IMG/VR virus record: IMGVR_UViG_3300028588_000064
Coordinates: 1-33,640 of that record
Strand: one strand, 5' to 3'
Origin: a virus
Lineage: Duplodnaviria; Caudoviricetes
Length of the DNA: 33,640 bases
Under the pieces are notes generated by a model that saw nothing but the letters and a program-made list of their open reading frames with translations, was not told the origin of the DNA and ran no database searches. Made by a program: the position numbers and the translations under genes. Of the stretch, positions 2,522 through 32,321 are shown in pieces; the stretch's first letter is position 1; each line of letters opens with the position of its first letter.

Positions 2522-4012
2522 ATGTCCGAGCCAAGCTGGCTCCCGCGGTTGTTGCACTACCCGCCGGCCCCGTTCACCTCCGGGCCTGAGTTCACCGAGC
2601 TGGCCGCGTCTGCCGGCCTGATCCTGGACGACTGGCAGTCCGGGACTCTGGATCTAGGCCTGGGTGAGCGCGCGGACGGCAAGTGGGCCAGCTTCCAGAA
2701 CACCATCGTGGTGGCCAGGCAGAACGGCAAGGACGGCATCTTTGAGGCCCTGGGTCTTGGGTGGTTGTTCCTCACCGGGGAGCGGTTGATCGGCCACAGC
2801 GCTCACGAGTACAAGACCGCCATGGAGGCTTTCCGCCGCCTGGTGGGCCTGATCGAGAACACCGACGATCTCCGCCGCAAGGTCAAGAAGATCATCAATA
2901 CGAACGGCGAAGAGGGCATCGAGCTGCTCGACGGCCGCCGCATGCGCTTCCTCGCTCGGTCCAAGGGCGCCGGCCGTGGGTTCTCGTTCGACAAGATGAT
3001 CTGGAACGAGGCCTACGCCCTGACAGCCGCCCAGGTCGACGCCGTCCTGCCGACCATGAGCGCCAGGCCCAACCCCCAGCTTTGGCTCGGCTCCAGCCCT
3101 CCGCTCGACGCCGCGACCGGTGAGGCCCTGTTCCGTGCGCGCCGCATGGCGGAGGCCGGTGCGCCTGGCGTGATGATGCTGGACTGGGGCCTGGCCGCCC
3201 GGCTGGACAAGATCGGTCCGTGCGCCGCCGACAACTGCTCGCACCAGGTCACCGAAACAGGATGCATCCTGGATGACGAGTCGATGTGGGCTCGGACCAA
3301 CCCGGCGTACCCGAACCGGATCAACGCCGAGGCCATCAAGCGTGAGCGCGCCACCATGGATCCGGTCGGCTTCGCCCGGGAGCGGGCTGGCGCGTGGCCG
3401 CCTGACCTGTCGGACGGCTTCACCGTGATCAGCCGGGAGCAGTGGACCCGACTCCAGTCCGCGGCGGAACCCCCATCAGGCCGTCCCGCGTTCGCGGTGG
3501 CCGTCTCGTCCCGCAGCCTGGGCCCGGTCCGGTCGTCCATCGGCGTGGCCCAGCGCCGGACCGATGGCAAGGCCCACCTGGAACTGGTCATCTCTGGACC
3601 CGGCTCGGCCTGGGTGCCGCAGGCCCTGGCTCAGCTCCAGACCAAGCGGAGTCCGTGTGCGATCGTCATCGACCCGGGCTCCCCGGCCGGTTCTATCATC
3701 GCGGACGTCGAGGCGGCTGGCGTGATCGTCACCCCGATGGGCGCGCGGGACGTGGCCCAGGCGTTCGGCATGATCTATGATGCGGCCACCAGCGAAAACC
3801 CGGAGGGCCGTAACGTGGTGCACATCGGCCAGTCCGAGATCGCCACCGCGCTGAAGGGTGCCGGTACTCGGCCGGTCGGGGACGGGACGGCCTGGGACGT
3901 TAAGAACGCCGGTACCGACATCACACCGATCGACGCCGTGACAAAAGCATTGTGGGGCCTGGCCACCAAGGGCGCCGAGACGGAATGGGAGCCGCTGGTG
4001 ATGTACGCGTGA
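2522..4012 (+). CDS. terL: Terminase large subunit
   Basis: Walker A VARQNGKD, RGFSFDKMIWNEAY Walker B region, TNPAY and FARERAGAW motifs, C-terminal nuclease with DITPIDA. Confidence 0.93.
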   Translation: MSEPSWLPRLLHYPPAPFTSGPEFTELAASAGLILDDWQSGTLDLGLGERADGKWASFQNTIVVARQNGKDGIFEALGLGWLFLTGERLIGHSAHEYKTAMEAFRRLVGLIENTDDLRRKVKKIINTNGEEGIELLDGRRMRFLARSKGAGRGFSFDKMIWNEAYALTAAQVDAVLPTMSARPNPQLWLGSSPPLDAATGEALFRARRMAEAGAPGVMMLDWGLAARLDKIGPCAADNCSHQVTETGCILDDESMWARTNPAYPNRINAEAIKRERATMDPVGFARERAGAWPPDLSDGFTVISREQWTRLQSAAEPPSGRPAFAVAVSSRSLGPVRSSIGVAQRRTDGKAHLELVISGPGSAWVPQALAQLQTKRSPCAIVIDPGSPAGSIIADVEAAGVIVTPMGARDVAQAFGMIYDAATSENPEGRNVVHIGQSEIATALKGAGTRPVGDGTAWDVKNAGTDITPIDAVTKALWGLATKGAETEWEPLVMYA

Positions 4013-4221: not shown

Positions 4222-6494
4222 CCATTCGCCAGGAACTTGCCCGGTTCGGCCGTGAGTTGGCCGGCCGCCCCGAGGTCGTAGCCGGGGACATCGAGCGGTC
4301 ATACAACCGGGAATGGCAAGGATTTGTCGACGCCTACCTCCGGTATCAGGGCGGCATCTATCAGCCCGGATTCACCACGACCATTCCCGGCCAGAAAGCC
4401 GAGCCGGTACTGGACTCGTTCGTCGGTTACGTCCAGGGCGCCTACAAGACCAATGGCGTGGTGTTCGCGGTCAGCATGGCCCGTAGCTACCTGTTCACCG
4501 ATGTCACGTTCAAGTGGCGCCGGTACGGCCAGTCCGGCGGCGGAAACGATCTGTTCGGCAACGCCGAGCTGAGTCTCCTGGAGCGCCCCTGGCCCGGCGG
4601 GACCACGCAGCAGTTGCTGACCAGGGCGGAACAAGACGTCACGGCCGCCGGTACGTTCTTCGTCGCGCGCGAAGGCGACCGCCTCCGCCGGTTGCGGCCG
4701 GACTGGTGTGAGTTCATCCTGTCGGCGCCGCCACTGGAGGCCGTGCAATCCGACGTGGTCGGCATCAAGTACACCGTCGGAGGCCCGCATTCCGGCGGCC
4801 CGGCCCGGCTGTATCTGGTGGACGCGCCCGAGGGTGTGAACAAGGACGGGTACGCCGCGTTCTGGTCGCCGATCCCCGACCCGGACGCCCAGTACCGTGG
4901 CATGTCCTGGCTGACGCCCGTCCTCAAGGACAAGATGGCGGACCAGGCGGCCACCGATCATAAGCTCGCGTTCTTCGAGAACGCGGCCACGCCGAACCTC
5001 GCGGTGGCCCTCAAGGACACGGTCACCCCGGAGCAGTTCAAGGCGTTCGTCCGGACCATGAACGAGGCCTCGGCCGGCGTCGACAACGCATACAAGACCC
5101 TGTTCGTCGGCGGTGGCGCGGACGTAACCGTCATCGGCGCCGACATGAATCAGCTGGACTTTCGCAATACCCAGGGCGCTGGGGAGACCCGGATCTGTGC
5201 CGCCGGCCGGGTGCCGCCCATCATCGTCGGCCTGTCCGAGGGCCTGTCCGCGGCCACCTACTCCAACTACGCCCAGGCCCGGCGGGCGTTCGGCGACTCC
5301 TGGGCGCGACCCCAGTGGAAGTCGTTCGCTGGCTCGATCGAGCCGCTTCTGGACGCACCGCGCAACGCGGCCGGTGTGCGGGACGCCCAGCTCTGGTACG
5401 ACGTCGCGGACGTGGCCTTCCTCCGGGAGGATCTGAAGGACCTGGCCGACGTCATGTCCACCACCGTGGGCACGATCAACGCGGCCATCGCCGCCGGCTG
5501 GACCCCGGAGAGCGCACAGAAAGCCATCCTGGCCGAGGATCTCGGCCTGCTCGTGCACTCCGGTCTGGTCTCTGTCCAGCTCCAGCCTCCGGGCGGCCCG
5601 GCCGACGCGGACACGACCCAGCAGGACGCCACCGCTGAGCTGACAGCCAAGGTCGGCAACATCGCCAGCCTGGCGCCGCCCGGTGCGTTCGACCCGGAGA
5701 GCGTGGTCGAGGCCGTCAACGCCGGGGACCTCTCCAAGCTGGACGTGGTCGAGGTCGAGGAGGATCCGGCCCTGGCTGAGGATCCCGAGGTCGATCCGGC
5801 CGTCCTGGAGGAAGACCTGGCAAACGAGGCGTTGCGCGGCCGGCACGAATACGTGCGGGACGCCGATGGCCAGTTCGCGCACATTCCCGGCGGTTCCGGC
5901 AAGATCGGTCCCAAGCTCGGCCCGATCGCGGACCCGCTGAAGCTCAGTACCCGGATCAAGTTGGAGCCCGGAGAGACGTTCGCCGGCTCGGCCCGTGTCC
6001 ACGACCGGCGTGGTGATCAGACCACGGTCCTGGCTCGGGTCGAGACGGAGGCCGGGCCGCGGTTCCGGGTCGGTATCGTCCGTCCCGAGGACACCCGGGA
6101 ATGGCGCGCCGCCGACAAGGGCGGCACGGTGGAGCTGGACCGTGACGGCGCCGAGAACCTCCGCCACGTCATCCAGGACGCTCTTGCTGAGGGCAAGGCC
6201 AACGTCTCGGCGTACCGGGCCGGTCTCCGTGAGGCGAACAAGGCCGGCACCTTGGACGACATCGAGTGGGATCCCGAGGCCGAGATCGCCAAGGGGACGG
6301 TCACTGGCGCCCGCTGGGGAGACATCGCCTGGGAGCTGACCCGCGAAGAGGGCGACGAGTATCTGGACCTCGGCCCTGGCGGGAGCTGGTCACTCGGGCT
6401 GTCGATCGGCGGCGGCGAACCGTTCTACCTGGACAGCCCGGCGGCCGTCGGCAAACTGGACAAGGCCCTGGCCAACCTGATCGGAGCGTCCTAG
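4218..6494 (+). CDS. Portal protein with long C-terminal extension
   Basis: HK97-type portal motifs LLERP, YRGMSWL, FFENAATP, ICAAGRVPP, TYSNYAQARRAF; about 290 extra aa after the portal core; start re-assigned to GTG 4218. Confidence 0.88.
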   Translation: MTIRQELARFGRELAGRPEVVAGDIERSYNREWQGFVDAYLRYQGGIYQPGFTTTIPGQKAEPVLDSFVGYVQGAYKTNGVVFAVSMARSYLFTDVTFKWRRYGQSGGGNDLFGNAELSLLERPWPGGTTQQLLTRAEQDVTAAGTFFVAREGDRLRRLRPDWCEFILSAPPLEAVQSDVVGIKYTVGGPHSGGPARLYLVDAPEGVNKDGYAAFWSPIPDPDAQYRGMSWLTPVLKDKMADQAATDHKLAFFENAATPNLAVALKDTVTPEQFKAFVRTMNEASAGVDNAYKTLFVGGGADVTVIGADMNQLDFRNTQGAGETRICAAGRVPPIIVGLSEGLSAATYSNYAQARRAFGDSWARPQWKSFAGSIEPLLDAPRNAAGVRDAQLWYDVADVAFLREDLKDLADVMSTTVGTINAAIAAGWTPESAQKAILAEDLGLLVHSGLVSVQLQPPGGPADADTTQQDATAELTAKVGNIASLAPPGAFDPESVVEAVNAGDLSKLDVVEVEEDPALAEDPEVDPAVLEEDLANEALRGRHEYVRDADGQFAHIPGGSGKIGPKLGPIADPLKLSTRIKLEPGETFAGSARVHDRRGDQTTVLARVETEAGPRFRVGIVRPEDTREWRAADKGGTVELDRDGAENLRHVIQDALAEGKANVSAYRAGLREANKAGTLDDIEWDPEAEIAKGTVTGARWGDIAWELTREEGDEYLDLGPGGSWSLGLSIGGGEPFYLDSPAAVGKLDKALANLIGAS

Positions 6495-6997
6495 TGGCAT
6501 TCACTGAGCAACTCCACCCCCGCGGGACCGGGGCGGTCGGCGGCCAGTTCGTCGCCGCGGGCGCATCCAAGAGTGCTGCCCCGGCCGGGAGGACCGCCGG
6601 CAAGAAGGCGGTAGCGGCCAAGAAGGGTGGCGGAAACCTGTCGTTCGACGGCAAGCGCGGAGCCGGGTACGGCGTCAAGGGCGGGGACAAGCGGGTCAAG
6701 GCCCTCCAGACCGCACTGAACAAGCTCGGCCTGACTGACGGCGCCGGCAAGAAGCTGGCCGTCGACGGGAAGCTCGGGCCGCGGACGACGGCCGCCATCA
6801 AGAAGGCTCAGCGCAAACTGGGCCTCAAGGCGGACGGCGTCGTGACGCCGGCCCTACTGAAGCAGATCACCATGGCCAAGAAGCTGGAAAAGGCCAAGGC
6901 CAAGAAGGCGGCACCCGCCAAGAAGGCCGGCCCGCCCGAGCGAACGTTCAAGCGGCCCGCCCAGGCCAAGCCCATCGCGACCGTGCACAAGGGGTGA
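6494..6997 (+). CDS. Lys/Ala-rich protein with peptidoglycan-binding (PG_binding_1-like) domain
   Basis: VKALQTALNKLG..VDGKLGPRTTAAIKKAQRKLGLKADGVV; GTG start overlaps portal stop. Confidence 0.8.
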   Translation: MAFTEQLHPRGTGAVGGQFVAAGASKSAAPAGRTAGKKAVAAKKGGGNLSFDGKRGAGYGVKGGDKRVKALQTALNKLGLTDGAGKKLAVDGKLGPRTTAAIKKAQRKLGLKADGVVTPALLKQITMAKKLEKAKAKKAAPAKKAGPPERTFKRPAQAKPIATVHKG

Positions 6998-9801: not shown

Positions 9802-9840
9802 CCGGGAGGCAGGTTCCTTGCAGGGTTCCCTGCCTCTCGG
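9802..9840 (+). terminator. Hairpin (possible terminator)
   Basis: CCGGGAGGCAGG/CCTGCCTCTCGG stem directly after the stop at 9797. Confidence 0.5.
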
Positions 9841-9876
9841 TCAAAACCCTGCCAACCCTGCTGGACAGGAGTCGTC

Positions 9877-10650
9877 GTGATGGACAAGGGAGCGGTCATC
9901 CCCAGCATGGTGGACGGTGGGCACTGGGCCTCCTGTTTCGGCCTGTCCTGGGCCGACATGCTGTTGCTCGATCAGGTCAGCCCGACCCCGCGGGTGATGC
10001 GGCCGGGCGGCCAGTACCTCCGCAACGTCGCCGGCACCATGGGCGTAGCCTCGGCCCGCAATGAGATCGTGGCCAACTTCCTGAACCTCCCACACCAACC
10101 CGAGTGGCTGTTCATGGTCGACACGGACATGGGCTTCACCGCGGACACCCTGGAGCGGCTGATCCAGTCAGCCGAGACGAACGGGGCGGCCGTGGTCGGC
10201 GCCCTCTGCTTCGCCCAGAAGTCCGACCCGCGGCAACCGGAGACGAACCTCCACGCACGCCGGCTCCGACTCGTCCCCACCCTGTACCGGTTCGTGGAGA
10301 CCCAGGACGAAAAGGGCTTCCTCTCGATCGAGAACTACCAGCGGGACAGCTTCCAGTGGGTGGATGCCACCGGCGCGGCCTGCCTCCTGATGCACCGCAC
10401 CGCCCTGGAGGCCGTCGGCCCGGACCCGTTCCGGCCGCTCCGGGTTCAGGGCGCCAACCCGGACGGATCCCCGCGGGAGTTCTCCGAGGACCTGTCCTTC
10501 TGCTCCCGGCTGGCCGACGTCGACATCCCGGTGGCCGTGGACACCAGCGTCAAGACCACGCATGCCAAGGGCGGGATCTTCCTGGACGAGGAGACGTACG
10601 TGGCCCAGCTCGCCGTGCGTAAGGCCAGCCCTCTCGGAGTCGCCGCGTGA
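9877..10650 (+). CDS. GT-A fold (family 2-like) glycosyltransferase
   Basis: ARNEIV, WLFMVDTDMGF (DxD), TGAACLLMHR, FSEDLSFC, TTH; AGGAG SD before GTG 9877. Confidence 0.85.
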   Translation: MMDKGAVIPSMVDGGHWASCFGLSWADMLLLDQVSPTPRVMRPGGQYLRNVAGTMGVASARNEIVANFLNLPHQPEWLFMVDTDMGFTADTLERLIQSAETNGAAVVGALCFAQKSDPRQPETNLHARRLRLVPTLYRFVETQDEKGFLSIENYQRDSFQWVDATGAACLLMHRTALEAVGPDPFRPLRVQGANPDGSPREFSEDLSFCSRLADVDIPVAVDTSVKTTHAKGGIFLDEETYVAQLAVRKASPLGVAA

Positions 10651-11666: not shown

Positions 11667-12543
11667 CGTTGTCCGGGGCGCGCCCGCCACCCTCTTGGCG
11701 GAATGGCGCCTGTACGCGGGCGGCCCGTACGCCGACGTGACCGGCGTGACCATCGCGGTGGTCAGAATCGTGGACAGCGTCGTTGTCCTGTCCACGACGA
11801 CCACCGGAGTGACCAGCCCGGCCGTTGGCATCAACGCCTACGTCTGGACACCCGCGCCGTCCCTGACCATCGGGGACTATCTGGTCACCTGGACAGGGAC
11901 AGACCCGGACAGCGAAATTGTCCAGGCGACCGAGGTGGTCACTGTCCAGGCGGGCGGCGCCCTCGGCGGGCCGTACGCGGACCGAGCCACCCTGAAGCGG
12001 CGCATGGGCATCCCCGACACGGACACCCTCCAGGACGGCGACGTAGACGACGCACTGTCCAGCGCGTCCGACGCCATCAACCAGTTCACCGGCCGGCAGT
12101 TCGGCCAGGCCTCCGAGGCGTCCACAAGGACGTACGTTGCCGGGCCCAGCGGCGTGGACACCGACGATTTCTGGACCACCGACGGCCTGCTGGTGAACGG
12201 GTCCAGCACGACGTATGCCCTTGAGCCGGCCAACGGCATCGTCAACGGTGTCCCCGGCTGGCCGTACAGTCGCCTGGTCAGCCCGTACAACGGCCACCCG
12301 ATCTACGACTCGGGCAGCATGTTCGTCCTTGCGGTCGAGGTCACGGCCCGGTGGGGCTGGGCCCGGGTCCCCAGCTCGATCAAGTCAGCGTGCCTGATGC
12401 TGGCCGCCGACACCCTAAAGTCCAAGGACGCACCTTTCGGGGTGGCGGGCTTCGGTGACTACGTCGTCCGGGTCCGGGCCAACCCGAAGGTGGCCGAGCT
12501 GCTGGCCCCGTACGTGCGCGACCCGATCAAGGCCGGGTCCTGA
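11656..12543 (+). CDS. Head-to-tail adaptor with extra N-terminal beta domain
   Basis: YADRATLKRRMGI, ASDAINQFTGRQF, VEVTARWGWARVPSSIKSACL, KDAPFGVAG. Confidence 0.8.
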   Translation: MTTSVVRGAPATLLAEWRLYAGGPYADVTGVTIAVVRIVDSVVVLSTTTTGVTSPAVGINAYVWTPAPSLTIGDYLVTWTGTDPDSEIVQATEVVTVQAGGALGGPYADRATLKRRMGIPDTDTLQDGDVDDALSSASDAINQFTGRQFGQASEASTRTYVAGPSGVDTDDFWTTDGLLVNGSSTTYALEPANGIVNGVPGWPYSRLVSPYNGHPIYDSGSMFVLAVEVTARWGWARVPSSIKSACLMLAADTLKSKDAPFGVAGFGDYVVRVRANPKVAELLAPYVRDPIKAGS

Positions 12544-12986
12544 TGGCCGCCTACGACCTGAACGCCATCGCGGACGCATTGGCCGCCGTCTTCCAGGGCA
12601 TGGACACGCGGACGTTCGACGGTGACCAAGAGGTGGTCACTTCGGTGTCCACCGCGGCCGGGGTGGCCAACGTTCCTGCGATCGTCATCGAGCTGGACGA
12701 CATCACGTGGGACATCACGATGGCCAGGGGTGCGGACAGTTTCGTCTTCCTGGCGTACCTTCTGGTGTCCAGCGCGGACAGCCCGGGTGGACAACGTCTG
12801 GTCAGACAGCTTCTGTCCACTGGTGGCCTGGCCGACCGGATCAAGGACGCGCTGGACAGTGACCAGACGTTGGGTGGCCTGGTTTCGTACGCGGTGGCCA
12901 CCGGAACCCGTACCATCGGCAATATCAACTATGCGGGCGCCGACTACCTCGGGGCCACGATTGAGATTCAGGTGGTTGCGCAATGA
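12543..12986 (+). CDS. Tail terminator / head-tail completion protein
   Basis: 147 aa, IKDALDSDQTLGGLV motif, position between adaptor and tail tube. Confidence 0.65.
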   Translation: MAAYDLNAIADALAAVFQGMDTRTFDGDQEVVTSVSTAAGVANVPAIVIELDDITWDITMARGADSFVFLAYLLVSSADSPGGQRLVRQLLSTGGLADRIKDALDSDQTLGGLVSYAVATGTRTIGNINYAGADYLGATIEIQVVAQ

Positions 12987-13705
12987 CCTTCGTCTTGGGC
13001 AACATTTCGCGCGTCCTGGTCAATGAGCGCCAGGTGTCCAGCACCCTGGCCGGCTACACGGCCAGCCACCAGCGGGCCGCCAGCGAGAGCACCGTGCTGA
13101 CCGATGGTGCCGCCCGGTTCGTACCCGGGCTGATGTCCGGCTCCCTGCTGCTGCGGGGTCCGCAGGACTCCGTCGGCCAGGACCTCGCCACCGAAATCAA
13201 GGACGCCATGGGCGTGGACAACGCCTTCTTGGCCACGGTGTGTCCGAATGGCCTGGCCATCGGCCAGTTCGCCATGACCATCCTGGGCGACTTGAACGAG
13301 CACAGTGTGGACGCCACTGTCTCCGATATCTCGTCCTTCTCGATGACCGCCCAGGCCGACGAATCGGTGGACATGGGGTTCATCGTTCACGCCCTCCAGG
13401 CCGAGACGGTCGACGGGAACGGCGCGACGGTGGACCGCGGGGTCGGATCGACCACGACCGGCGGCGGCGTTGCCGTCCTCCACCTCACCGCGTACGCCGG
13501 CCTGACAAACATCATCGTGAAGATCCAGCACTCCACGGACAACTCCGCATGGTCCGACCTGGTCACGTTCACCACCGCGACCGCGGTCGGGGCAGAGCGC
13601 AAGTTCCTCGCCGCCGGTACGACCATCAACCGCTACGTCCGGGCCGTCACCGATGTGACCGGCACGGGATCGGCCACCTTCCTGGTGGCCTTCGCACCTC
13701 GATAA
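12983..13705 (+). CDS. Tail-tube-like protein with C-terminal extra domain
   Basis: N-terminal half aligns by eye with the next gene; C-terminal KIQHSTDNSAWSDL..RYVRAV beta-sandwich. Confidence 0.6.
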   Translation: MTFVLGNISRVLVNERQVSSTLAGYTASHQRAASESTVLTDGAARFVPGLMSGSLLLRGPQDSVGQDLATEIKDAMGVDNAFLATVCPNGLAIGQFAMTILGDLNEHSVDATVSDISSFSMTAQADESVDMGFIVHALQAETVDGNGATVDRGVGSTTTGGGVAVLHLTAYAGLTNIIVKIQHSTDNSAWSDLVTFTTATAVGAERKFLAAGTTINRYVRAVTDVTGTGSATFLVAFAPR

Positions 13706-17212: not shown

Positions 17213-19917
17213 GCACCTTCACACCCAAGGTCCGGCTCTGGCCCGGCATGTCCCTGACCCAGGACGCCTCCACGTGGGGCCTCGGCGTGGACATCACTCC
17301 GTGGGTACGGCGGCCGGGCCAGGACGGCGGCCAGGCCATCTCCTATTCGGCGGGCCGGCAGGATGAGGGCAACCAGATCGACGCCGGCACCCTGGACGTC
17401 ACCCTGGACAACCGCACCGGCATCTGGTCGCCCGGCAACGTCACCGGCCCCTACTACGGCAAGCTGAAGCGGAACACGCCGATCCAGCTCACCACCACCA
17501 CCGGCTACGACTCGTTCGGCCGTGTGCTGGCCACCGGCCAGCTCGGCACGTCCACCAGCGGACAGAACTGGACGTCGTCGTCGTCGTGGACGGTCACCGG
17601 CACGGAGGCCTACTCGTCGCTGGCCGTCAACGCGGCCATCATCGCGACCCTGGACAACGCCGACTCCTGGAATTTCGATCTTCGCTACACGTGCTGGGTG
17701 GACCAGGTCGCGACGGGGGCCAACCTGATCATGGGCGGGATCGCCCGGACCGTCGACGCGAGCAACTTCCTCCTGGCCCGGTGTGAGTTCAACACTGCCG
17801 GCACCGTGGACGCCCGGGTCGGGCGACGGACCACCGCGGGCGGGATCGCCACGATCTCCGCGGCGGCCGGGGTCTTCTCATACACGGCCAACACCAAGGT
17901 TCGTGTCCGCTTCCAGGGTGACGGCCCGGCCGTCCGGATGAAGATCTGGAAGCCGGCCAACCCCGCCCTGCCCGACGCCGACGAACCGGCCACCTGGACG
18001 GTGACCGGAGCGGACACCGACATCGGCGGAACCAAGCTGGGCCTGTTCCCGTGGAGGGTCGGCGGGAACACGAACACCAACCCCAAGATCTACGTGGACG
18101 ACTTCACCGCGGACGCCGAGGAGTGGACCGGCGGCGTGGCCCAGTGGCCGACCCGGTGGAACATGACCGGTGCGAACGCCTGGGCGCCCATCCAGGCCGG
18201 TGGCGTCCTCCGCCGCCTTCGCCAGGGTCAGGGCCAGCTCCAGTCGGCGCTCCGCCGGCAGCTGGCCGCCTACTCCCCTACCGGGTTCTGGCCGCTGGAG
18301 GACGGGCCCGGGTCGACGTCGTTCGCCAGCGCGATCACCGGCCTCCAGCCGGCCACCTTCTCCATGGTCACGCCGGGAACGGACAACTCCCTGGCGGGCG
18401 CCGCCCTGTCGCCGACGTTCGATGATCCGTTCTCCTCGATCACCGCGAACACTCCCCGGTCACCGTCACCGAACACCGGCTTTGCCGTCATGTGGCTGAT
18501 GAAAATGCAGAGCCTACCGGCGTCCAACACGCTGGTGGCCCGGATCAAGGTCAATGGCCGGTACTCCAAGTGGGAGATCGCCATGACTCCGACCGGAACG
18601 GTGGTCCGTGCGTATGAGGGCGACGAGACGACGCCGGGTGTGGACAGCTCGGCCCTGTACGGGACCAACGTCAACCCCCTCGGTTGGTTCGCCTGTCAGC
18701 TGGAGGTGGCCAACTCGGGCGGCATCAACACGTGGGCGTTCATCACCCACCAGGTCGGCGACAACACGTACTACTCGCAGTCGTCCAGCTACCTGTCCGG
18801 GGCGGTACCGACGTGCTCCAGTGTCCGGCTCGGCGGGAGCCAGCTGGACGGATGCGCGTTCTCCATGCTGTGGATCGGGCCGGACACGCTGCCGTTCGTG
18901 GCTGACTCGTTCTCGCTGGTGTCGTCCGGGTACGCCGGGGAGAAGGCCGCGGTCCGAGCGGCGCGGGTGGCCACCGAAGCCCGGGTCCCATTGATCATCG
19001 AGCCGGGCGACTCAGAGGCTATGGGCGCACAGAAAGAGGCCACCGCCCTGGAGGCGTTGCGGTCGTGCGAGATCACGGACTACGGGATCTTGTACGAGAC
19101 CGGTTCGGGTCTCGGGTTCCGGCCGCGGGTCGCCCGGTACAACCCGTCGACGTTCCTGACCCTGTCGCTGGTGGCCGGTCACCTGGCATTGCCGCCCGAG
19201 CCGACCTACGACGACCAGAAGCTACGCAACGTCTGGACGGTCACTCGGATCGGCGGATCCTCCGCCACCGTCGTGGACGACACGTCGGTGGCGCTGGAGG
19301 GCGAGATCGCCGGCTCGGACACGGTGAACACTCAGACGGATGACGTCCTACCGAACCACGCCGGCTGGCGGACGTACCTGGGTGTGCAGGACCAGCTGCG
19401 GTGGCCGTCGATCACCCTGGATTTTGCGCGCAACCCCGGTCTGCTGGCATACTGGCGGGCCCGGCGTTACGGCTTCCGGTTCAAGGTCGCCACCGGCCTA
19501 CCTCAGGTGGCCGGAGCTGAGCCGGACGTGATCGCCGAGGGGTACCAGGCCACCCTCCACCCGGACGGCTGGCAGGTCACCCTGAACTGTTCCGGGGCGG
19601 CGCCGTGGGACGTGTCGGTCCTGGAGAGCGCCACCTCTCCGGTCCGGCTGGACACGGCCGGTACCCAGCTCACATCGGGGGTGAACAGCACGGCCACCTC
19701 CTGGCCGGTCACTGTCACGACGGGGCCGATCTGGAACACAGCGGCGACCTTCCCCATCCTGATGATGTGCGAGGGTGAGCTGATCAGCGTGTCCGCCATT
19801 TCCGGGGCCGGGCCGGGGCAGACGTTCACGGTCACCCGGTCTGTGAACGGCGTGGTCAAGTCGCACCTGGCCGCCGCGCCCGTGTCCTTGGCGTATCCGT
19901 CCCGAGCCGCACTGTGA
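17209..19917 (+). CDS. Large minor tail protein (hub/adhesin with beta-sandwich domains)
   Basis: 902 aa after TMP; AGTLDVTLDNRTG..SP..GPYYG, PTGFWPLED, CEGELISV..FTVTRSVNGVVKSH. Confidence 0.8.
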   Translation: MSTFTPKVRLWPGMSLTQDASTWGLGVDITPWVRRPGQDGGQAISYSAGRQDEGNQIDAGTLDVTLDNRTGIWSPGNVTGPYYGKLKRNTPIQLTTTTGYDSFGRVLATGQLGTSTSGQNWTSSSSWTVTGTEAYSSLAVNAAIIATLDNADSWNFDLRYTCWVDQVATGANLIMGGIARTVDASNFLLARCEFNTAGTVDARVGRRTTAGGIATISAAAGVFSYTANTKVRVRFQGDGPAVRMKIWKPANPALPDADEPATWTVTGADTDIGGTKLGLFPWRVGGNTNTNPKIYVDDFTADAEEWTGGVAQWPTRWNMTGANAWAPIQAGGVLRRLRQGQGQLQSALRRQLAAYSPTGFWPLEDGPGSTSFASAITGLQPATFSMVTPGTDNSLAGAALSPTFDDPFSSITANTPRSPSPNTGFAVMWLMKMQSLPASNTLVARIKVNGRYSKWEIAMTPTGTVVRAYEGDETTPGVDSSALYGTNVNPLGWFACQLEVANSGGINTWAFITHQVGDNTYYSQSSSYLSGAVPTCSSVRLGGSQLDGCAFSMLWIGPDTLPFVADSFSLVSSGYAGEKAAVRAARVATEARVPLIIEPGDSEAMGAQKEATALEALRSCEITDYGILYETGSGLGFRPRVARYNPSTFLTLSLVAGHLALPPEPTYDDQKLRNVWTVTRIGGSSATVVDDTSVALEGEIAGSDTVNTQTDDVLPNHAGWRTYLGVQDQLRWPSITLDFARNPGLLAYWRARRYGFRFKVATGLPQVAGAEPDVIAEGYQATLHPDGWQVTLNCSGAAPWDVSVLESATSPVRLDTAGTQLTSGVNSTATSWPVTVTTGPIWNTAATFPILMMCEGELISVSAISGAGPGQTFTVTRSVNGVVKSHLAAAPVSLAYPSRAAL

Positions 19918-19926
19918 GGAGTTCTC

Positions 19927-20361
19927 ATGTTTCTCGCCGGTGACATCCTCACCGCCCAGCGCCTGAACCGGCTCCAGCCCAAGACGTACACGGTCAAGTC
20001 GTCCGGCAACGTGGCGGCCAGCCAAACCGGCGTCGATATCCCGGGCGCCACGTACACGTTCACCACGGAGACGAACGGCGCCACTGTGGACGTGTGGTTC
20101 TCGGTCGACTTCGACAACACGGCGTCCCCGGGCGCCAACGTCGGTTCGGTCCGGGCATTCCTGGATGGTGTGACCGGCGGCATCCTGTTCGGCATCTACG
20201 GGGCGAACATCACTGACGGTCGCGCCAACGTCGCCAACGTCGACTCGTTCACCGTTCCGACCGCGGGCAGCCACACGATCAAGCTGGTGGTGACGACCCC
20301 GGCGGCGATGACGGTCAACCAGTACACCGGCTTGAAGCTCCAGGTCAATGAGATCGTCTGA
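19927..20361 (+). CDS. Minor tail protein
   Basis: FLAGDILTAQRLN N-terminus typical of actinophage tail proteins; GAGGAG SD. Confidence 0.7.
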   Translation: MFLAGDILTAQRLNRLQPKTYTVKSSGNVAASQTGVDIPGATYTFTTETNGATVDVWFSVDFDNTASPGANVGSVRAFLDGVTGGILFGIYGANITDGRANVANVDSFTVPTAGSHTIKLVVTTPAAMTVNQYTGLKLQVNEIV

Positions 20362-24690: not shown

Positions 24691-24772
24691 TATACGTCAA
24701 CTATAGCCGACGTGCCAGCTCACCGCAACGCCCTAGCAGACCAACTATAAGTGATCTATTATAAAAGGTATG
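24691..24772. promoter_or_regulatory. Divergent promoter region
   Basis: Leftward TATAGT at 24700-24705 and 24744-24749; rightward TATTAT at 24757-24762, 7 nt before ATG 24770; locally AT-rich. Confidence 0.65.
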
Positions 24773-25141
24773 CCTAGTTGGTTCGACGTCGATGCGCCTG
24801 ACACGTCCTGGAGGGCATCCTCCGAGGACCCCATACCTCTGCTCATGGGCCGGTGGCCCATCACCGCCTTCTTGTACCGCTGGTGCGCCTGCCGGCCCCT
24901 GGACGGCCACGCCCGGACGGACGCCGGCTTCCTCACTCCCGGCACGAAGGCGTTCACCAAGACCGGCCGGGCGGCGCCGTACCAGTTCTGGCCCGGCTGG
25001 AAACGGGGCCTGTTCACCCGCCTGCCGATCAACCTGTTCCTGCTGTCCCTGCTGACCGCGTACCTGATCAGCGGCTGGGGTGGCCTCGGCTCATACCTCC
25101 ACGCCTACTGGACGGTGATCGCATGGTGCTTCACCTGGTGA
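24770..25141 (+). CDS. Trp-rich membrane protein
   Basis: 123 aa, C-terminal TM segment(s); stop overlaps the FtsK-like gene start. Confidence 0.7.
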   Translation: MPSWFDVDAPDTSWRASSEDPIPLLMGRWPITAFLYRWCACRPLDGHARTDAGFLTPGTKAFTKTGRAAPYQFWPGWKRGLFTRLPINLFLLSLLTAYLISGWGGLGSYLHAYWTVIAWCFTW

Positions 25142-26613
25142 TCTGGCTGGCCAAGACCCTGGCCTACTGCGCACCGCTACTCGCCGCCGCCGCCGCGGCA
25201 TGCGTGATCGTCTTCACCTGGCGCGCTGCCGCCGGCAGGGTGGCCGTCGTTGGTCGCCGGCCGCGGGAGTACGTCGTGCCGATCGAGGCGGCGGCGGCCA
25301 CCCTGCTGAAGACCCGGCCCGGGGTCGTCCGCATGGTCATGGACGCCGGGCTGCTCACCGAGGACACCAGCGCCCGCGGTCGGCTCACCCTGCCCCTGTC
25401 GTGGGTCGGCACGGACACCGAACGGGACAGCCTCCTGACCCTGGTGCGGTCCCGGCTCGGCACCGACCTGGTGGCCGCCCGGTTCAAGCTGGCCGGCCAC
25501 GCACCGCATATGCAGCTCTACGTGCCGCCGCAGCCTCCCCCGTTCGTGAGCTGGGAGCGCTTCCTGGAGCTGGCCGACCCGATCTCGCCCTACCTCGGGG
25601 ACGCCGCGGGTGGCCGTGCGGTCCGGTGGGACCTCGGCGACGACAGCCCGCACATGGGCATCATCGGCGGGTCCGGCGTCGGCAAGAGTGAGTTGATGGC
25701 CGCGGTCACGGCCCAGTTCATGCGCGCGGGTGCCGGCGTCATCGTGCTCGACCCGAAGGCCACTTCCCACCGCTGGCTCATGGACATCGACGGCGTGCTC
25801 TACTGCGGCGAGCGCCGGATGCTGTTCGACACGGTGATGTGGCTGGACGACGTGATGAATGACCGCATCGCCCAGAACCTCCGGGTGGCCGATGACATCG
25901 ACTTCCCGCGGATCGTCATCCTGCTGGAGGAACGCAACAGCCTCCAGGACAAGCTCCGGGACGCCTGGGCGGAGATCCGGGTCAGTGGCCAGCCGCAGAT
26001 GTCGCCGGCCATCAAGGCCCTGGACAGGCTGTCCAGCATGGGCCGGTCGATCAACATCAACGTGATCCTGGGTGGCCAGGAGACGGCCCAGCAGGTCATC
26101 GGGCGCCGCAGCAACTACGGGGCCTTCTCCGTGGGTGGCCGCACCGCCGAGGGCCACTGGCGCAACATCGGGGTCAAGAAGCCGGCGATCTCGTCCAGCC
26201 CCGGCCGGTTCGGCTACGTGGTGGCCGGTCAGGTCCAGGTCTTCCAGGCCCCGTACATGGACCTGAAGCAGGAGCGCGCGCGTCTGGTGGCCTGGGCGAC
26301 CGGCGGCGAGCCCCTCCTGGACGTCCGGGCCATGATGTCGTCACACGATGCGGGGGTGCCTTTCCCCAGCTCAGAGCCTGTAGACACGACGACAGGTGGG
26401 TCGGGGGACCTCTGGCTGGTCGAACAGGCCGGCGACCGGGTCACCCTGCCCCAGTGGGCGGCGTCGTGCGGCTTGAACGTGGCCACCGTCCGGCAGTGGT
26501 CGACGCGGTACCCGGAGTTCCCGGCGGCGGTCGGCACGCTGGGCCGGTCTCGGGCGTTCAGCCGGGAGGCCCTGGACGCCTGGCGCGAGGAGCATCGGTC
26601 CGCCAGCGCCTGA
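25123..26613 (+). CDS. FtsK/SpoIIIE (TraB-like) ATPase with N-terminal TM and C-terminal HTH
   Basis: SPHMGIIGGSGVGKS (Walker A), VLDPK, RIVILLEE (Walker B), MGRSININVILGGQ, PGRFG; C-term LPQWAASCGLNVATVRQWSTRYPEFP..AFSREALDAW; start 25123 or 25138. Confidence 0.85.
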   Translation: MVLHLVIWLAKTLAYCAPLLAAAAAACVIVFTWRAAAGRVAVVGRRPREYVVPIEAAAATLLKTRPGVVRMVMDAGLLTEDTSARGRLTLPLSWVGTDTERDSLLTLVRSRLGTDLVAARFKLAGHAPHMQLYVPPQPPPFVSWERFLELADPISPYLGDAAGGRAVRWDLGDDSPHMGIIGGSGVGKSELMAAVTAQFMRAGAGVIVLDPKATSHRWLMDIDGVLYCGERRMLFDTVMWLDDVMNDRIAQNLRVADDIDFPRIVILLEERNSLQDKLRDAWAEIRVSGQPQMSPAIKALDRLSSMGRSININVILGGQETAQQVIGRRSNYGAFSVGGRTAEGHWRNIGVKKPAISSSPGRFGYVVAGQVQVFQAPYMDLKQERARLVAWATGGEPLLDVRAMMSSHDAGVPFPSSEPVDTTTGGSGDLWLVEQAGDRVTLPQWAASCGLNVATVRQWSTRYPEFPAAVGTLGRSRAFSREALDAWREEHRSASA

Positions 26614-26614
26614 C

Positions 26615-26761
26615 CTACGCCCGGACGATCTCAATCGTCCGGGCGTAGCGGTTGCTGGACAGTCGGTCCGCCTCGGCGGTGGCCTCGGCGTAGGTCATGG
26701 CGTGAAGGGTGATCGTGCCGCAGTGGGGGCCAGTGATCCGGAGTGTCCATTCCTTCGTCAT
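26615..26761 (-). CDS. Leaderless 48 aa protein (not in ORF track)
   Basis: MTKEWTLRITGPHCGTITLHAMTYAEATAEADRLSSNRYARTIEIVRA; TATAGT 6 nt upstream. Confidence 0.7.
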   Translation of the reverse strand: MTKEWTLRITGPHCGTITLHAMTYAEATAEADRLSSNRYARTIEIVRA

Positions 26762-26828
26762 ACCCCTACTATAGCAGACGTCTAGCTGGACAGCAAGAAG
26801 GCCCTGGACATCGTGTCCAGGGCCTTTC
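26759..26828 (-). repeat. Cassette boundary 1 (terminator hairpin + leaderless promoter)
   Basis: AAGGCCCTGGACA-TCG-TGTCCAGGGCCTT hairpin, then on minus strand TTGCTG-17 nt-TATAGT-6 nt-ATG. Confidence 0.8.
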
Positions 26829-26835
26829 CGGTGGA

Positions 26836-27042
26836 TCAGGAGATGCGAGGGAAGTCGATGCCGACTGCAATCAAGAGTGCTCGCGCCAAGTCAACCGCCT
26901 CAGTTTCAGAGAGAACCTTGGTGACCTCGTCGCCATCCTTGCCGACCAGGGTCATGTCCACCACGAGGCCAGACGACAGGTGCATCGCCGTGACTTCGAT
27001 GTCCTCGCGGCCGGTCTGAATGGTGTTCATCTGCGTCGTCAT
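26836..27042 (-). CDS. Leaderless hypothetical protein, 68 aa
   Basis: ORF fills the space between two cassette boundaries. Confidence 0.75.
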   Translation of the reverse strand: MTTQMNTIQTGREDIEVTAMHLSSGLVVDMTLVGKDGDEVTKVLSETEAVDLARALLIAVGIDFPRIS

Positions 27043-27111
27043 ACCCCTACTATAATCGACGTCTCCCTAGATCACAAGAAGGCCCTGGACATGATGTCCA
27101 GGGCCTTCTTG
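27040..27111 (-). repeat. Cassette boundary 2
   Basis: CAAGAAGGCCCTGGACA-TGA-TGTCCAGGGCCTTCTTG hairpin; TTGTGA-17-TATAGT-6-ATG. Confidence 0.8.
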
Positions 27112-27112
27112 G

Positions 27113-27157
27113 TCAGCGTCCGCCGCAGCAGGGACACTGGCATCCAGCCGGATGCAT
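27113..27157 (-). CDS. Cys-rich micropeptide, 14 aa
   Basis: MHPAGCQCPCCGGR; GGGGGTGA SD-like element upstream; ends at terminator. Confidence 0.45.
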   Translation of the reverse strand: MHPAGCQCPCCGGR

Positions 27158-27162
27158 CCTGA

Positions 27163-28053
27163 TCACCCCCTTTCAGGGTTCATGCTCGGGAGCCACCAGT
27201 CCTGGCGGCGGATGGTCTTGTCACTGGTTCCGAAGTGTCCAGCCAGAAGCTCCGCGATGTCCTTGGCCAGCAGGCCGTTGTCCTTGCCAATCCTGGCCAG
27301 CGCGGCACCCTCGATCGGGTCGATGACCACGCGGCTGGACACTCGCCGTGTCCGCGGCTGGACAGGACCCTGGACAACCGGAACGGCCGGCGTGGTCGTG
27401 GTGTCCTGGACACGGCTGGACAGTCCAGCCAGCCAGCTCTCCGTCTCGCTGGCCAATTCCTGACCAAGCTGTCCAGCTGCCCTGTCCGCGTCCTTGGCCG
27501 CGCTGGTCAGTTCGGCATTGTCCAGCTGTCCAGCGAAGGCAGCCTCCGACTCGGCGACGTCCTGGACACTGGCCACCGGCACTGTCCACTGTCCGGCCGG
27601 GTTGTCCAGCGCAATGTCCACGGCCTGGTCACTGCCGTTGTCCATCGGCTGGACACGACGCGCCTGGACAACTCTGTCCAGGGCGAGGGCGGCCAGGACC
27701 ATGGCGGCGTCGATGGCCACCGGGCCGGCGTACCGGCTGGCCACGTCGTAGCCGTAGTGGGACAGGACGTTGGCCAGGTGCCAGTACGAGATCCACGCGG
27801 CCGTGCTGCCCACGAGGATCAGGACCGCGACCTTGGTGATGCCGTCCCGCCAGGAGGCCAGCCACGGCGTGTGAATCAGCAGTTCCACGACCCCGAACAG
27901 GGCCAGCGGCCAGGCGGTGGCGGAGATGTACGCGCCGACGCCGGGCTGGGCGTTGTCCAGGTTGATGGCCTGGAGGTTGCCGGCCAGAGAGGCGGCCACT
28001 CCGAGGACGAGGACTGTGGTGGCCACGACCAGCGGCCTGCGGTGGTTGCTCAT
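27163..28053 (-). CDS. DUF2637-like multi-pass membrane protein with C-terminal HTH
   Basis: Four TM helices (ASLAGN, WPLALF, AAWISYWHL, GPVAIDAAM), linker, LLAKDIAELLAGHFGTSDKTIRR. Confidence 0.7.
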   Translation of the reverse strand: MSNHRRPLVVATTVLVLGVAASLAGNLQAINLDNAQPGVGAYISATAWPLALFGVVELLIHTPWLASWRDGITKVAVLILVGSTAAWISYWHLANVLSHYGYDVASRYAGPVAIDAAMVLAALALDRVVQARRVQPMDNGSDQAVDIALDNPAGQWTVPVASVQDVAESEAAFAGQLDNAELTSAAKDADRAAGQLGQELASETESWLAGLSSRVQDTTTTPAVPVVQGPVQPRTRRVSSRVVIDPIEGAALARIGKDNGLLAKDIAELLAGHFGTSDKTIRRQDWWLPSMNPERG

Positions 28054-28136
28054 ACGTCAACTATAACAGAGGTACGCCTGGACAACAAGAAGCCCTGGAC
28101 ACTTCGGTGTCCAGGGCTTCCGGTCAGGCTGGTCAG
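28051..28136 (-). repeat. Cassette boundary 3
   Basis: About 85 bp nearly identical to 28307-28391; hairpin GAAGCCCTGGACA-CTTCGG-TGTCCAGGGCTTC. Confidence 0.85.
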
Positions 28137-28309
28137 CCGTTGAGTTGTCGCGCTCGTCGCTGGGCCCAGCCCTCGGCGGCGTAAGTCCTGCTTGCTGGCA
28201 CGGGCTCGCCCGGGGAGCCGTAGGGTCGAGTGTCCATCACTTGATAGCGCGAATAGTCCACCAGGTAAACCTGGTAACGAGGGGGGAGGCTAACGGTCGG
28301 CGTCGTCAT
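28133..28309 (-). CDS. Leaderless 58 aa protein (not in ORF track)
   Basis: MTTPTVSLPPRYQVYLVDYSRYQVMDTRPYG...AEGWAQRRARQLNG; start and stop fall exactly in the flanking repeats. Confidence 0.7.
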   Translation of the reverse strand: MTTPTVSLPPRYQVYLVDYSRYQVMDTRPYGSPGEPVPASRTYAAEGWAQRRARQLNG

Positions 28310-28391
28310 ACATCAACTATAGCAGAGGTACACCTGGACAACAAGAAGCCCTGGACACCGAAGTGTCCAGGGCTCTGGTCAGGCTGGTCAG
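28307..28391 (-). repeat. Cassette boundary 4
   Basis: Direct repeat of 28051-28136 with the hairpin loop inverted. Confidence 0.85.
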
Positions 28392-28451: not shown

Positions 28452-28490
28452 TCCACTATAGCGGAGGTCGGCTTCCTCGGCTATAGTGGA
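28452..28490. promoter_or_regulatory. Back-to-back promoters forming an inverted repeat
   Basis: TCCACTATAGCGGAGG-7 nt-CCTCGGCTATAGTGGA, 15/16 match. Confidence 0.75.
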
Positions 28491-28520
28491 GATATAAGCC
28501 ACACAGACGGGAGCACGACA

Positions 28521-31547: not shown

Positions 31548-32321
31548 CTACTTCCCGGGGCACCCGTTCTCGTCCGTCAGCTGGCCCGGCCGCCGGAACG
31601 GGCACCACCAGCACTTAGACGACGGCGTGGCCCGGACATCCAGAACACTGCCGCCGGCATCCATGTGGGCCTTGATCTGCCGGTACCGCTCGATGGCCTC
31701 CAGCGCCAGGGTCCTGTTATACGGCTCGGTCCACTCCTCGGAGTCGTCGAACTTCCAGGACCGGGCCAGCAGAACCAGCCGCACCGCCCGCACCCGCCGC
31801 CCCAGCAACTCGTACCCGCGGCCGTAGAGGTGCGCCTGGACCCGGTACTCCGGGCTCACGGTGCCCTTGTCCCGTAGCTCTTTCAGCGCCGTCACGCCAA
31901 CGTGCTTCCAGTCCACGACCGTCTCGTGGTCGGTGTCGTAGGCGTCGGCCTCGCCGGTGATGTCGTCCGCCACCTGGAGCCGGGCGATCGGCAACCAGCG
32001 TTCCCGGCCTTCCCTCGCGTTCCAGAACCGGATCACGTCGGTCATGGAGTTGTGCACGGCCGTGCCCTGGAACGGCGCCCAAGCCGGCTCCTGGGCGGGT
32101 GGCTGCGGTCCGGCGGCCAGTTTCCGGGCAATCTGCTGTGCGCACGGCGTCCCCAGCTCGGACGGGCCCAGGGCCACCTGCTGGGAGCGTGGCCGCTGGT
32201 GTTCGTAGTCGATCAGGACGTCGCGGAGTTCATGCAGAGTGCTCGGGACGCCGTGCTGAGCCGGCCAGCGCGTGGGGGCCCGAGCCGACTCGAACAGGTC
32301 GTCATCGTCCAGGTCGGTCAC
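31548..32321 (-). CDS. Cas4/RecB-like PD-(D/E)xK exonuclease
   Basis: GPSELGTPC, GTAVH, GEADAYD, VVDWK, QAHLYG, CWWCPF..C; GTG 32321 overlaps helicase stop. Confidence 0.88.
   Translation of the reverse strand: MTDLDDDDLFESARAPTRWPAQHGVPSTLHELRDVLIDYEHQRPRSQQVALGPSELGTPCAQQIARKLAAGPQPPAQEPAWAPFQGTAVHNSMTDVIRFWNAREGRERWLPIARLQVADDITGEADAYDTDHETVVDWKHVGVTALKELRDKGTVSPEYRVQAHLYGRGYELLGRRVRAVRLVLLARSWKFDDSEEWTEPYNRTLALEAIERYRQIKAHMDAGGSVLDVRATPSSKCWWCPFRRPGQLTDENGCPGK

Follow-up and report, generated by a model that had tools for sequence, protein, structure and literature searches.

Several described systems come close to the locus reported here. Intramycelial spreading requires SpdB2 of plasmid pSVH1, an oligomeric, four-helix, pore-forming membrane protein that interacts with both DNA and TraB; it has been described as a non-specific DNA binder, and homologs have been mentioned on some actinophages (PMC4447253). 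The choice of DNA for mycelial spreading is still regarded as speculative, SpdA having only been proposed as the DNA link (PMC4447253). SpdA2 of pIJ101, a protein of 135 aa, binds sites within its own coding sequence, where the peptide follows the DNA motif; these sps sites are a 12-bp palindrome, CGTCACGTGACG, in 2-3 copies, and their synonymous removal impaired segregational stability (PMC4170104). Finally, in clt loci the end of the tra gene bears direct repeats of 7-9 bp, which are read by TraB and presumed to select the DNA for transfer (PMC3583192, PMC4447253). Our literature search returned no description of in-gene arrays or of sequence-specific binding for SpdB2 or DUF2637 proteins; the original pJV1, pSN22 and SpdB2 papers, beyond its reach, may mention repeats.

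In this study, we examined a phage gene whose product resembles SpdB2 and whose coding sequence is crowded with the word TGGACA/TGTCCA. By analogy, this array would function as sps does for SpdA2, here with an SpdB2-like protein. Like sps, it lies inside the gene of a predicted DNA-binding protein. Unlike SpdA2, from which it is set apart by description, that protein is a four-helix membrane protein of 296 aa, and unlike sps, the sites in its family are words of 5-6 bp that number 10-26 and lie on either strand; further clusters occur outside the gene, and the word varies between lineages. With SpdB2/DUF2637 it shares four predicted membrane helices, a C-terminal HTH-like stretch, remote sequence likeness and, in AICE and plasmid homologs, the position beside traB; pSVH1 SpdB2 starts with a coiled coil and its gene is free of an array, whereas the present protein lacks such an N-terminal coil and comes with an array that goes with its own helix. 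As in the TraB/clt systems of pSVH1, pJV1 and pWTY27, a short, element-specific repeat cluster lies near a TraB/FtsK gene, but the array words are shorter, have no set orientation, lie within another gene and do not match the clt word where one plasmid has both. The Streptomyces plasmid-phages pZL12 and pFP4 combine virion genes with tra- and spd-like ones on a single replicon, as the present phage does.

The array gene and its in-gene array

The window, that is, the whole stretch of DNA analysed, is a virus record of 33.6 kb with 68% GC, about 78% complete, found in soil and leaf-litter sequencing runs from four studies, with no RNA dataset among the runs listed for it. It is a putative actinophage, with terminase, portal, capsid, neck, tail, helicase and exonuclease genes (profile matches; names from PHROGs). 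A glycosyltransferase family 2 gene (9886-10650), conserved in relatives, directly follows the capsid gene, and an ORF with a peptidoglycan-binding domain (6266-6997) overlaps the end of the portal gene. The array protein has 85 close homologs and 1719 protein matches in total. Distant homologs borne on genomes come from Micromonosporaceae and other actinomycetes; GTDB genomes contained no close relative, and cultured phages and PLSDB plasmids gave no match to the array protein or to P0189.

Table 1. Features of the window discussed in the text
Feature	Position	Strand	Basis
Second cluster: 17 TGGACA/TGTCCA and 5 TGGCCA, in the head-tail adaptor, tail terminator and major tail (tail tube) genes	11771..13373	.	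Hexamer count; PHROGs names
123-aa ORF, N-terminal part of a TraB/FtsK-like protein, separate here	24770..25141	+	Matches the N-terminus of the L061 FtsK (585 aa) at 44% identity
TraB/FtsK-like ATPase (496 aa), C-terminal HTH_17-like domain at ~26446-26595	25123..26613	+	Profile matches
Two terminator/promoter-like cassettes, motif-bearing hairpins, upstream of two small ORFs	26755..26826, 27036..27111	-	
Array gene, 296 aa, DUF2637/SpdB2-like: membrane domain, linker and C-terminal HTH	27163..28053	-	ORF
Predicted three-helix HTH, recognition helix SDKTIRRQ (family xxRT[IVA]RR), likely array reader	27181..27327	-	AlphaFold2, HTH_23
Array: 17 TGGACA/TGTCCA and 4 TGGCCA	27236..27680	.	Exact hexamer count
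Variable linker (aa 135-242), bearing most sites	27328..27651	-	Site count; low pLDDT parts
Membrane domain, four predicted hydrophobic helices (aa 5-134)	27652..28041	-	AlphaFold2; conserved in homologs
Cassette upstream of array gene: hairpin with TGGACA/TGTCCA pair, promoter-like boxes	28050..28120	-	Consensus
Fourth cassette, three sites, 90% identical to the 28050 cassette; scored terminator-like	28303..28375	-	

An AlphaFold2 model of the array protein, built from 39 homologs, places helices at residues 5-33, 39-61, 68-99 and 104-134 (pLDDT about 82-88), followed by a linker that contains a single long helix and in which pLDDT is low at 142-162 and 234-238, and by a C-terminal domain with helices at 246-258, 263-274 and 278-282 (pLDDT 93-98; 64.5 in a single-sequence model of the HTH alone). 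The hydrophobic sequence of the four-helix domain points to a membrane location. Against Pfam, the array protein itself gave no match; PF10935 (DUF2637) scores the window at 15.1 bits (E 3.3e-4; curated cut-off 22.8) and is matched by 29/39 aligned members at E<=0.1, its cut-off being exceeded by the distant homologs L073 and L074. An Atlas feature search returned DUF2637 at 0.91, with 10/10 named matches in DUF2637, and hhalign detected a remote likeness to pSVH1 SpdB2 (E 2e-4, 31 columns). For the C-terminal domain, HTH_23 is matched by 8/39 members at E<=0.1 (best 0.0044), the last helix is conserved among homologs, and Atlas structure neighbours include HTH clusters (TM 0.6-0.7). Searches with the array protein gave no Foldseek match at E<=0.001, generic helical bundles only in VIA-align (best Z 9.7) and a best E of 0.32 in PDB sequences.

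The sequence-only reading had counted 17 TGGACA/TGTCCA hexamers in both orientations and several frames of this gene. Exact counting returned the same 17 in the array, 8 on the + and 9 on the - strand, using five of the six strand-frames (TGT-CCA, Cys-Pro, being the absent one); an 18th site of the gene lies at 27954. Residues 124-242 carry 16 sites of the TGGACA type and 2 TGGCCA. The near-matches reported at the time are present as well (TGTCCG 3, TGTCCT 3, TGGCCA 4), as are 4 copies of TGACCA. A G follows TGTCCA (TGTCCAG) in 15 of the 18 gene sites, and the flanks are otherwise unrelated. Both the palindromic pair CCTGGACA-actc-TGTCCAGG at 27663-27682 and the single TGGACA/TGTCCA copy in the capsid gene were confirmed. 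Over the whole window, 83 sites compare with 16.9 expected and with a maximum of 26 in 100 dinucleotide shuffles.

Synonymous resampling with the protein fixed gave a mean of 3.76 sites (maximum 9 in 20000), and within-gene synonymous shuffling a mean of 5.05 (maximum 11 in 10000). The enrichment thus persists under the codon-preserving control suggested by the earlier reading, at 18 sites where 4-5 are expected, and in an all-hexamer-corrected test TGGACA is the top word of the gene (z 6.9; reached in 0/100 shuffles). We conclude that the array is real and selected at the DNA level. An assembly artefact is ruled out, the array being identical over its full length in contigs of two runs from different studies (X1 and X2, from either of which this DNA may come) and recurring, in part, in contigs of two further studies. 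Site spacing in the linkers shows codon periodicity only and no regular iteron spacing; a fixed 12-bp spacing was likewise rejected, the 12-13 bp excess in FtsK 3' clusters stemming from homologous sequences, and polar KOPS-like loading is ruled out by sites on both strands. The poorly conserved linker is probably the place where sites pile up cheaply. That its peptide is dictated by the DNA word, as had been proposed, holds in part: the codon controls, and a word kept while positions turn over, argue for selection on DNA, whereas one portion, a GQELASEAE-type helix, is conserved as protein among homologs.

The word in relatives and its link to the recognition helix

From relatives, 24 genes were extracted after 8 duplicate contigs had been left out, and 20 entered a pooled hexamer test, three distant homologs and one truncated gene being set aside. 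The two top hexamers were TGGCCA (212 vs 84) and TGGACA (93 vs 39), and CGGACA, AGGACA and GGGACA were about doubled; the family motif is broader than TGGACA, namely GGACA or TGGCCA. TGGACA and TGGCCA together exceeded all 200 synonymous shuffles in 18/20 phage-family genes (the window and near-duplicates included); L021, which favours CGGACA, and L032 fell below that mark. With each of eight relatives, the window shares at aligned positions only 2-9 of its 26 TGGACA/TGGCCA sites. Relatives therefore conserve the DNA word while site positions change, and not, as the earlier reading had set against its own proposal, the peptide without the word.

Across the wider family, the word goes with the predicted recognition helix. 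A DNA set of 137 genes was dereplicated to 129 and, with L061 added, narrowed to 122 with full membrane domain and tail; enrichment at p<=0.01 was found in 22/28 genes with an RTxRR helix and 1/94 without, that single gene having QKTVSR. Among loci independent of the word definition, 7/10 with RTxRR were enriched against 1/92 others. A protein-only proxy gave a similar picture in 212 homologs, split by HTH with an HMM after 7 duplicate or broken proteins had been set aside: the signature that the word leaves in the peptide had a median z of 3.44 in 154 homologs with the HTH and 0.12 in 58 without, and most exceptions among the latter were on inspection variant RTxRR-like helices. The HMM split replaced an earlier regex split (p 0.17) that had misclassed variant helices; P0079 and P0080, seemingly HTH-less but broken forms of P0090, were dropped. 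Genes with other helices favour other words, TGACGC for S.STARR (20 genes pooled) and TGTCGA for SEATVKR (5 genes), both groups being close kin with 1-4 sites per gene. The proposed test for a different word co-varying with the recognition helix was positive.

In Streptomyces plasmids, five of the ten genes of this kind that we examined carry arrays. GTGAGC arrays in pJV1, pSN22 and NZ_CP109054 accompany the helix SSGWVA or STGWVA, a GCGAAC array in pWTY27 the helix SVAWVS, and a GTGAAC array in NZ_CP109564 the helix SIGWVS; the last two arrays are nearly one-stranded and could reflect peptide repeats. No array was found in the genes of pSVH1, pSG5, pFP11, NZ_CP107792 and NZ_CP107821. In pJV1 (L204), 16/22 GTGAGC sites fall in a 1.1-kb gene of the spdB region (666-1781), forward copies in its coiled-coil part and reverse copies at its two ends; its protein has no Pfam match, and close homologs are annotated as DUF2637. 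The pSN22 homolog of this gene (L209, 3001-4084) is annotated as two ORFs, with GTGAGC sites in both halves.

A signal in trans is seen as well. Phage records with an RTxRR-type helix (7/7) hold 3.0-4.25 sites/kb, the word reaching 2-2.6 times expectation across coding DNA; one phage with a KTIQR helix has 2.25 sites/kb and no clusters; and 3/3 phages with another C-terminal domain have 0.86-1.16 sites/kb, at expectation for TGGACA and TGGCCA, these three forming a different lineage with no tail-terminator match. The TGGACA share of the own gene correlates with that of the FtsK gene (rho 0.65, p 0.02, n=12).

In-gene co-variation is partly linkage, because HTH and array lie in one gene and travel together. 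On the membrane-domain tree we counted 10 helix changes and 11 array changes, of which an underpowered comparison could draw on only 4 supported independent pairs, 3.5 concordant and 0 opposite (p 0.125). The helix occurs without an array in L032, L072 and L091, and L018, L038 and L079 miss p<=0.01; P0083, known as protein only, has the helix STRTARRW, yet its linker best fits GTGACA. The helix SPRTARGW is common to L018 and L033, with TGGACA:TGGCCA at 8:6 vs 3:11, and this ratio did not map to helix residues. In an unbiased top-word test, z>=4 was reached by 12/28 RTxRR genes, 5/94 other homologs and 4/140 ordinary genes; strong arrays are not family-wide. For GGCC-containing words, the synonymous null is lenient.

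Two candidate readers had been named, the encoded protein and the HTH of FtsK. The former is favoured by a word that tracks its own helix, and the latter disfavoured by a word independent of TraB type; in our judgement the predicted HTH of the gene itself is probably the array reader. Since the word changes with the predicted DNA-binding tip across relatives, the protein likely grabs its own genome.

Further observations concern the family's make-up. In P0078, P0084, P0085 and L061 (12094-12933), a different membrane-domain lineage is joined to the same linker and HTH, and the linker-HTH half seems to recombine as a module that keeps the array. The linker peptide words of P0190, P0202, P0207, P0218, P0219, P0208, P0182, P0166 and P0175, available as proteins only, fit other short two-strand motifs, for example GGACC, GAGAC, GTGAC, GTTGGA and TGACCA. 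In the phage group L171, L173-L175, L177, L179 and L186, the DUF2637-like protein ends in another conserved domain (LRDNP motif), with no detectable DNA word. A search for the DNA of P0083, P0084 and the tail-tube relatives gave nothing new.

Possible roles of the array

On balance, we lean towards an array that is bound by the own HTH of the membrane protein and tethers the genome at the membrane beside TraB/FtsK, helping its spread or persistence in the mycelium. The HTH at the end of the protein would bind the array directly, and an oligomeric membrane domain, as published for SpdB2, would give avidity for many 5-6 bp sites; the phage genome would be held at the membrane where TraB/FtsK pumps, in the service of DNA spread or stable inheritance in hyphae. 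We take this view because SpdB2 is oligomeric, interacts with TraB and is needed for spreading (PMC4447253), and because SpdA2 binds within its own gene at sites that matter for stability (PMC4170104).

The main alternative, a less likely one, keeps the same reader and gives it a mainly transcriptional job, autorepression of a possibly toxic pore-former together with a late-operon roadblock via the neck cluster. The stoperators of mycobacteriophage L5 are a counterpart for such roadblock sites. The neck cluster, which the sequence-only reading had overlooked, does sit in the middle of the late operon. The head-tail adaptor holds 8 sites vs 1.35 expected and the tail terminator 6 vs 1.9, numbers that no shuffle reaches, and among 32 ORFs tested these were, besides the array gene, the only two at p<0.001 (tail tube about 0.01). 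Enrichment recurs in the tail terminator gene of 5/6 phages (p<0.05) and the adaptor of 4/5, and the cluster is enriched also in G001, G002, G003 and G010, with positions partly turned over. The four intergenic cassettes (26755-28375) bear the word in hairpins, in three of them spanning a -35-like box. In the cassette of the array gene, a putative promoter by consensus, the -35-like TTGTTG (28083-28088) is overlapped by a site at 28079-28084, and the -10-like TATAGT (28060-28065) is followed by ATG 6 nt later; a site overlaps the -35-like box in G002 too, and sites lie at -12 to -50 in L075, L076 and L152. Consistent with such a role, no integrase, ParA or CI-like repressor match was found in the incomplete ORF sets of G001, G003, G004 and G010. 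Against it, the word occurs in 0/17 promoter-like sites of G001 and 0/7 of G005, the sites are unoriented, and AICE and plasmid homologs occupy the spd position beside traB. A family-wide operator role is rejected, promoter overlap not being conserved.

Several other sequence features accompany these regions. The promoter-like word (C)TGCTATAGT occurs in the window at 71, 1011, 2280, 23370, 24705, 26773, 27054, 28065, 28321, 28460, 28482, 29466 and 31521 and recurs in G001-G005 and G010; because it usually lies 6-7 nt before ATG, many transcripts may be leaderless. At 28452-28495, two divergent TATAGT boxes form an inverted repeat, a back-to-back promoter-like pair, and similar divergent pairs occur in G001, G002 and G010. 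Clusters of TGGACA/TGGCCA also lie in the helicase gene of G001 (19367-20237) and G004 (31553-32084), and are absent from the helicase fragment of the window.

That the array might be a clt, read by the HTH of the neighbouring FtsK/TraB to load the pump, is improbable. Its appeal lies in the C-terminal HTH of the phage FtsK and in clusters at the 3' end of the FtsK gene, where clt often lies, in 9/9 loci examined with L001-type FtsK; in L025 and L061 the clusters occupy the 5' part of that gene. The published clt repeats of pJV1 and pWTY27 adjoin the tra gene, and those of pWTY27, which are footprinted by TraA, overlap the 3' end of traA (PMC3583192); we place nine of them directly after tra in pJV1 (11107-81), and the TGACACC repeats of pWTY27 at 9805-9869. 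However, the in-gene words of both plasmids differ from these repeats, so the in-gene array is an element distinct from clt. Published clt words are direct repeats of 7-9 bp in one orientation, whereas the array is a hexamer with weak extension whose sites face both ways.

Co-variation, too, indicates that the word is not set by the cognate TraB: the same word lies beside unrelated TraB C-termini and different words beside near-identical TraBs. GGACA arrays adjoin five unrelated TraB types, made up of two phage FtsK lineages (25-27% alike) and three AICE types. In L076, GGACA stands at 11 vs 4.7; nine STARR loci whose TraBs share 65-67% identity with that of L076 contain GGACA only 0-2 times, and TGACGC instead. 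L164 and L166 encode an FtsK that resembles the L025 one in its HTH and matches it at 58-59% identity, yet these loci have a KTIQR helix and no clear array. At L120, with a TrwC relaxase nearby and no TraB match, there is a GTTGGA array (12 vs 2.1). In the window, the TraB/FtsK gene runs towards the array gene, contains no more than 3 sites of the TGGACA type and is split into two overlapping ORFs (123 and 496 aa) where L025 and L061 have one of 585 aa, yet the array is among the strongest. The array is thus probably not a clt, and the clt-like character proposed from the sequence fits it poorly.

The FtsK split is not an assembly error, because the letters are identical in four runs; the pump may therefore be two-part or decaying. 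Among cultured phages, the window FtsK has its only match, a weak one, in Streptomyces phage Dagobah, and neither of two Dagobah genes tested holds an array. A TraB/FtsK-like gene lies 550 bp downstream of the array gene in the window and <=1.5 kb from it in every phage relative with enough contig (the exception, L029, has a contig that ends 2 kb on). In a Pfam scan, TraB, GntR and either an integrase or a Rep protein were found encoded close by at most AICE-type loci. Nor does the array resemble a parS or classical partition site, and the centromere-like role proposed from the sequence is at most putative: ParA had no match among the ORFs scanned in the window (78% complete) or in the incomplete ORF sets of G001, G003, G004 and G010, and ParB-like proteins gave one weak match, in the incomplete set of G001 (E 8.5e-4).

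We give still less credence to a host protein, be it nucleoid-associated, a partition protein or a modification enzyme, that recognises GGACA/TGGCCA and for which the elements collect sites. The word is common to phages and AICEs, the phages lacking it belong to another lineage and may have other hosts, and a short-motif actinobacterial nucleoid protein exists in Gbn, which recognises GATC (PMC9239103); but DNA flanking the AICE loci is at background (0.6-0.9 per kb), and related Micromonosporaceae elements carry different words according to their own helix. A DnaA-box origin, in particular, is rejected. The consensus of that box is TTGTCCACA, and TGTCCAG does not match it, position 7 being mostly G; the TGGCCA-dominated relatives fit even less.

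Very unlikely, lastly, is that the sites follow from preferred peptides, from codon-pair bias or from local duplications that the linker tolerates. Conserved parts of the linker helix might point that way, and so might GGCC-containing words, many of the genes having more of them than the synonymous null allows: CGGCCA takes rank one or two in two of three low-density genomes, and CAGGCC is enriched in terL (p 0.01). The reading agrees poorly with sites on both strands, in five strand-frames and with unrelated flanks, with clusters of the same word in unrelated structural genes and intergenic hairpins, and with TGGACA and TGGCCA at expectation in phages without an RTxRR-type helix. In the window, GGCCAC is over-represented in the FtsK gene (15 vs 4.8 in 25123-26613) and CAGGCC in the terminase gene (11 vs 3.9 in 2522-4012), an excess that may be general GGCC codon-pair bias.

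Meaning for SpdB2-like proteins

Returning to the membrane protein as reader and tether of its own genome, a wider proposal, which we put forward tentatively and would not yet back, is that a large SpdB2/DUF2637 branch consists of sequence-specific, self-addressed anchors, each placing the word of its HTH both in its gene and elsewhere along its genome, with a helix-to-word code in which RTxRR would specify GGACA/TGGCCA, STARR TGACGC, ATVKR TGTCGA and [ST]GWVA GTGAGC. Such anchors might supply the missing DNA-selection step of intramycelial spreading, apart from clt, and let the genome of these phages cross hyphal cross-walls without virions.

In conclusion, a binding word can be predicted for each HTH type from the in-gene arrays, which the laboratory plasmids pJV1, pSN22 and pWTY27 show as well. 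The array of the window shows protein linkers shaped by selection for predicted DNA binding, and if the proposed role is true, a widespread group of uncultured soil phages would carry a tether-and-pump module.
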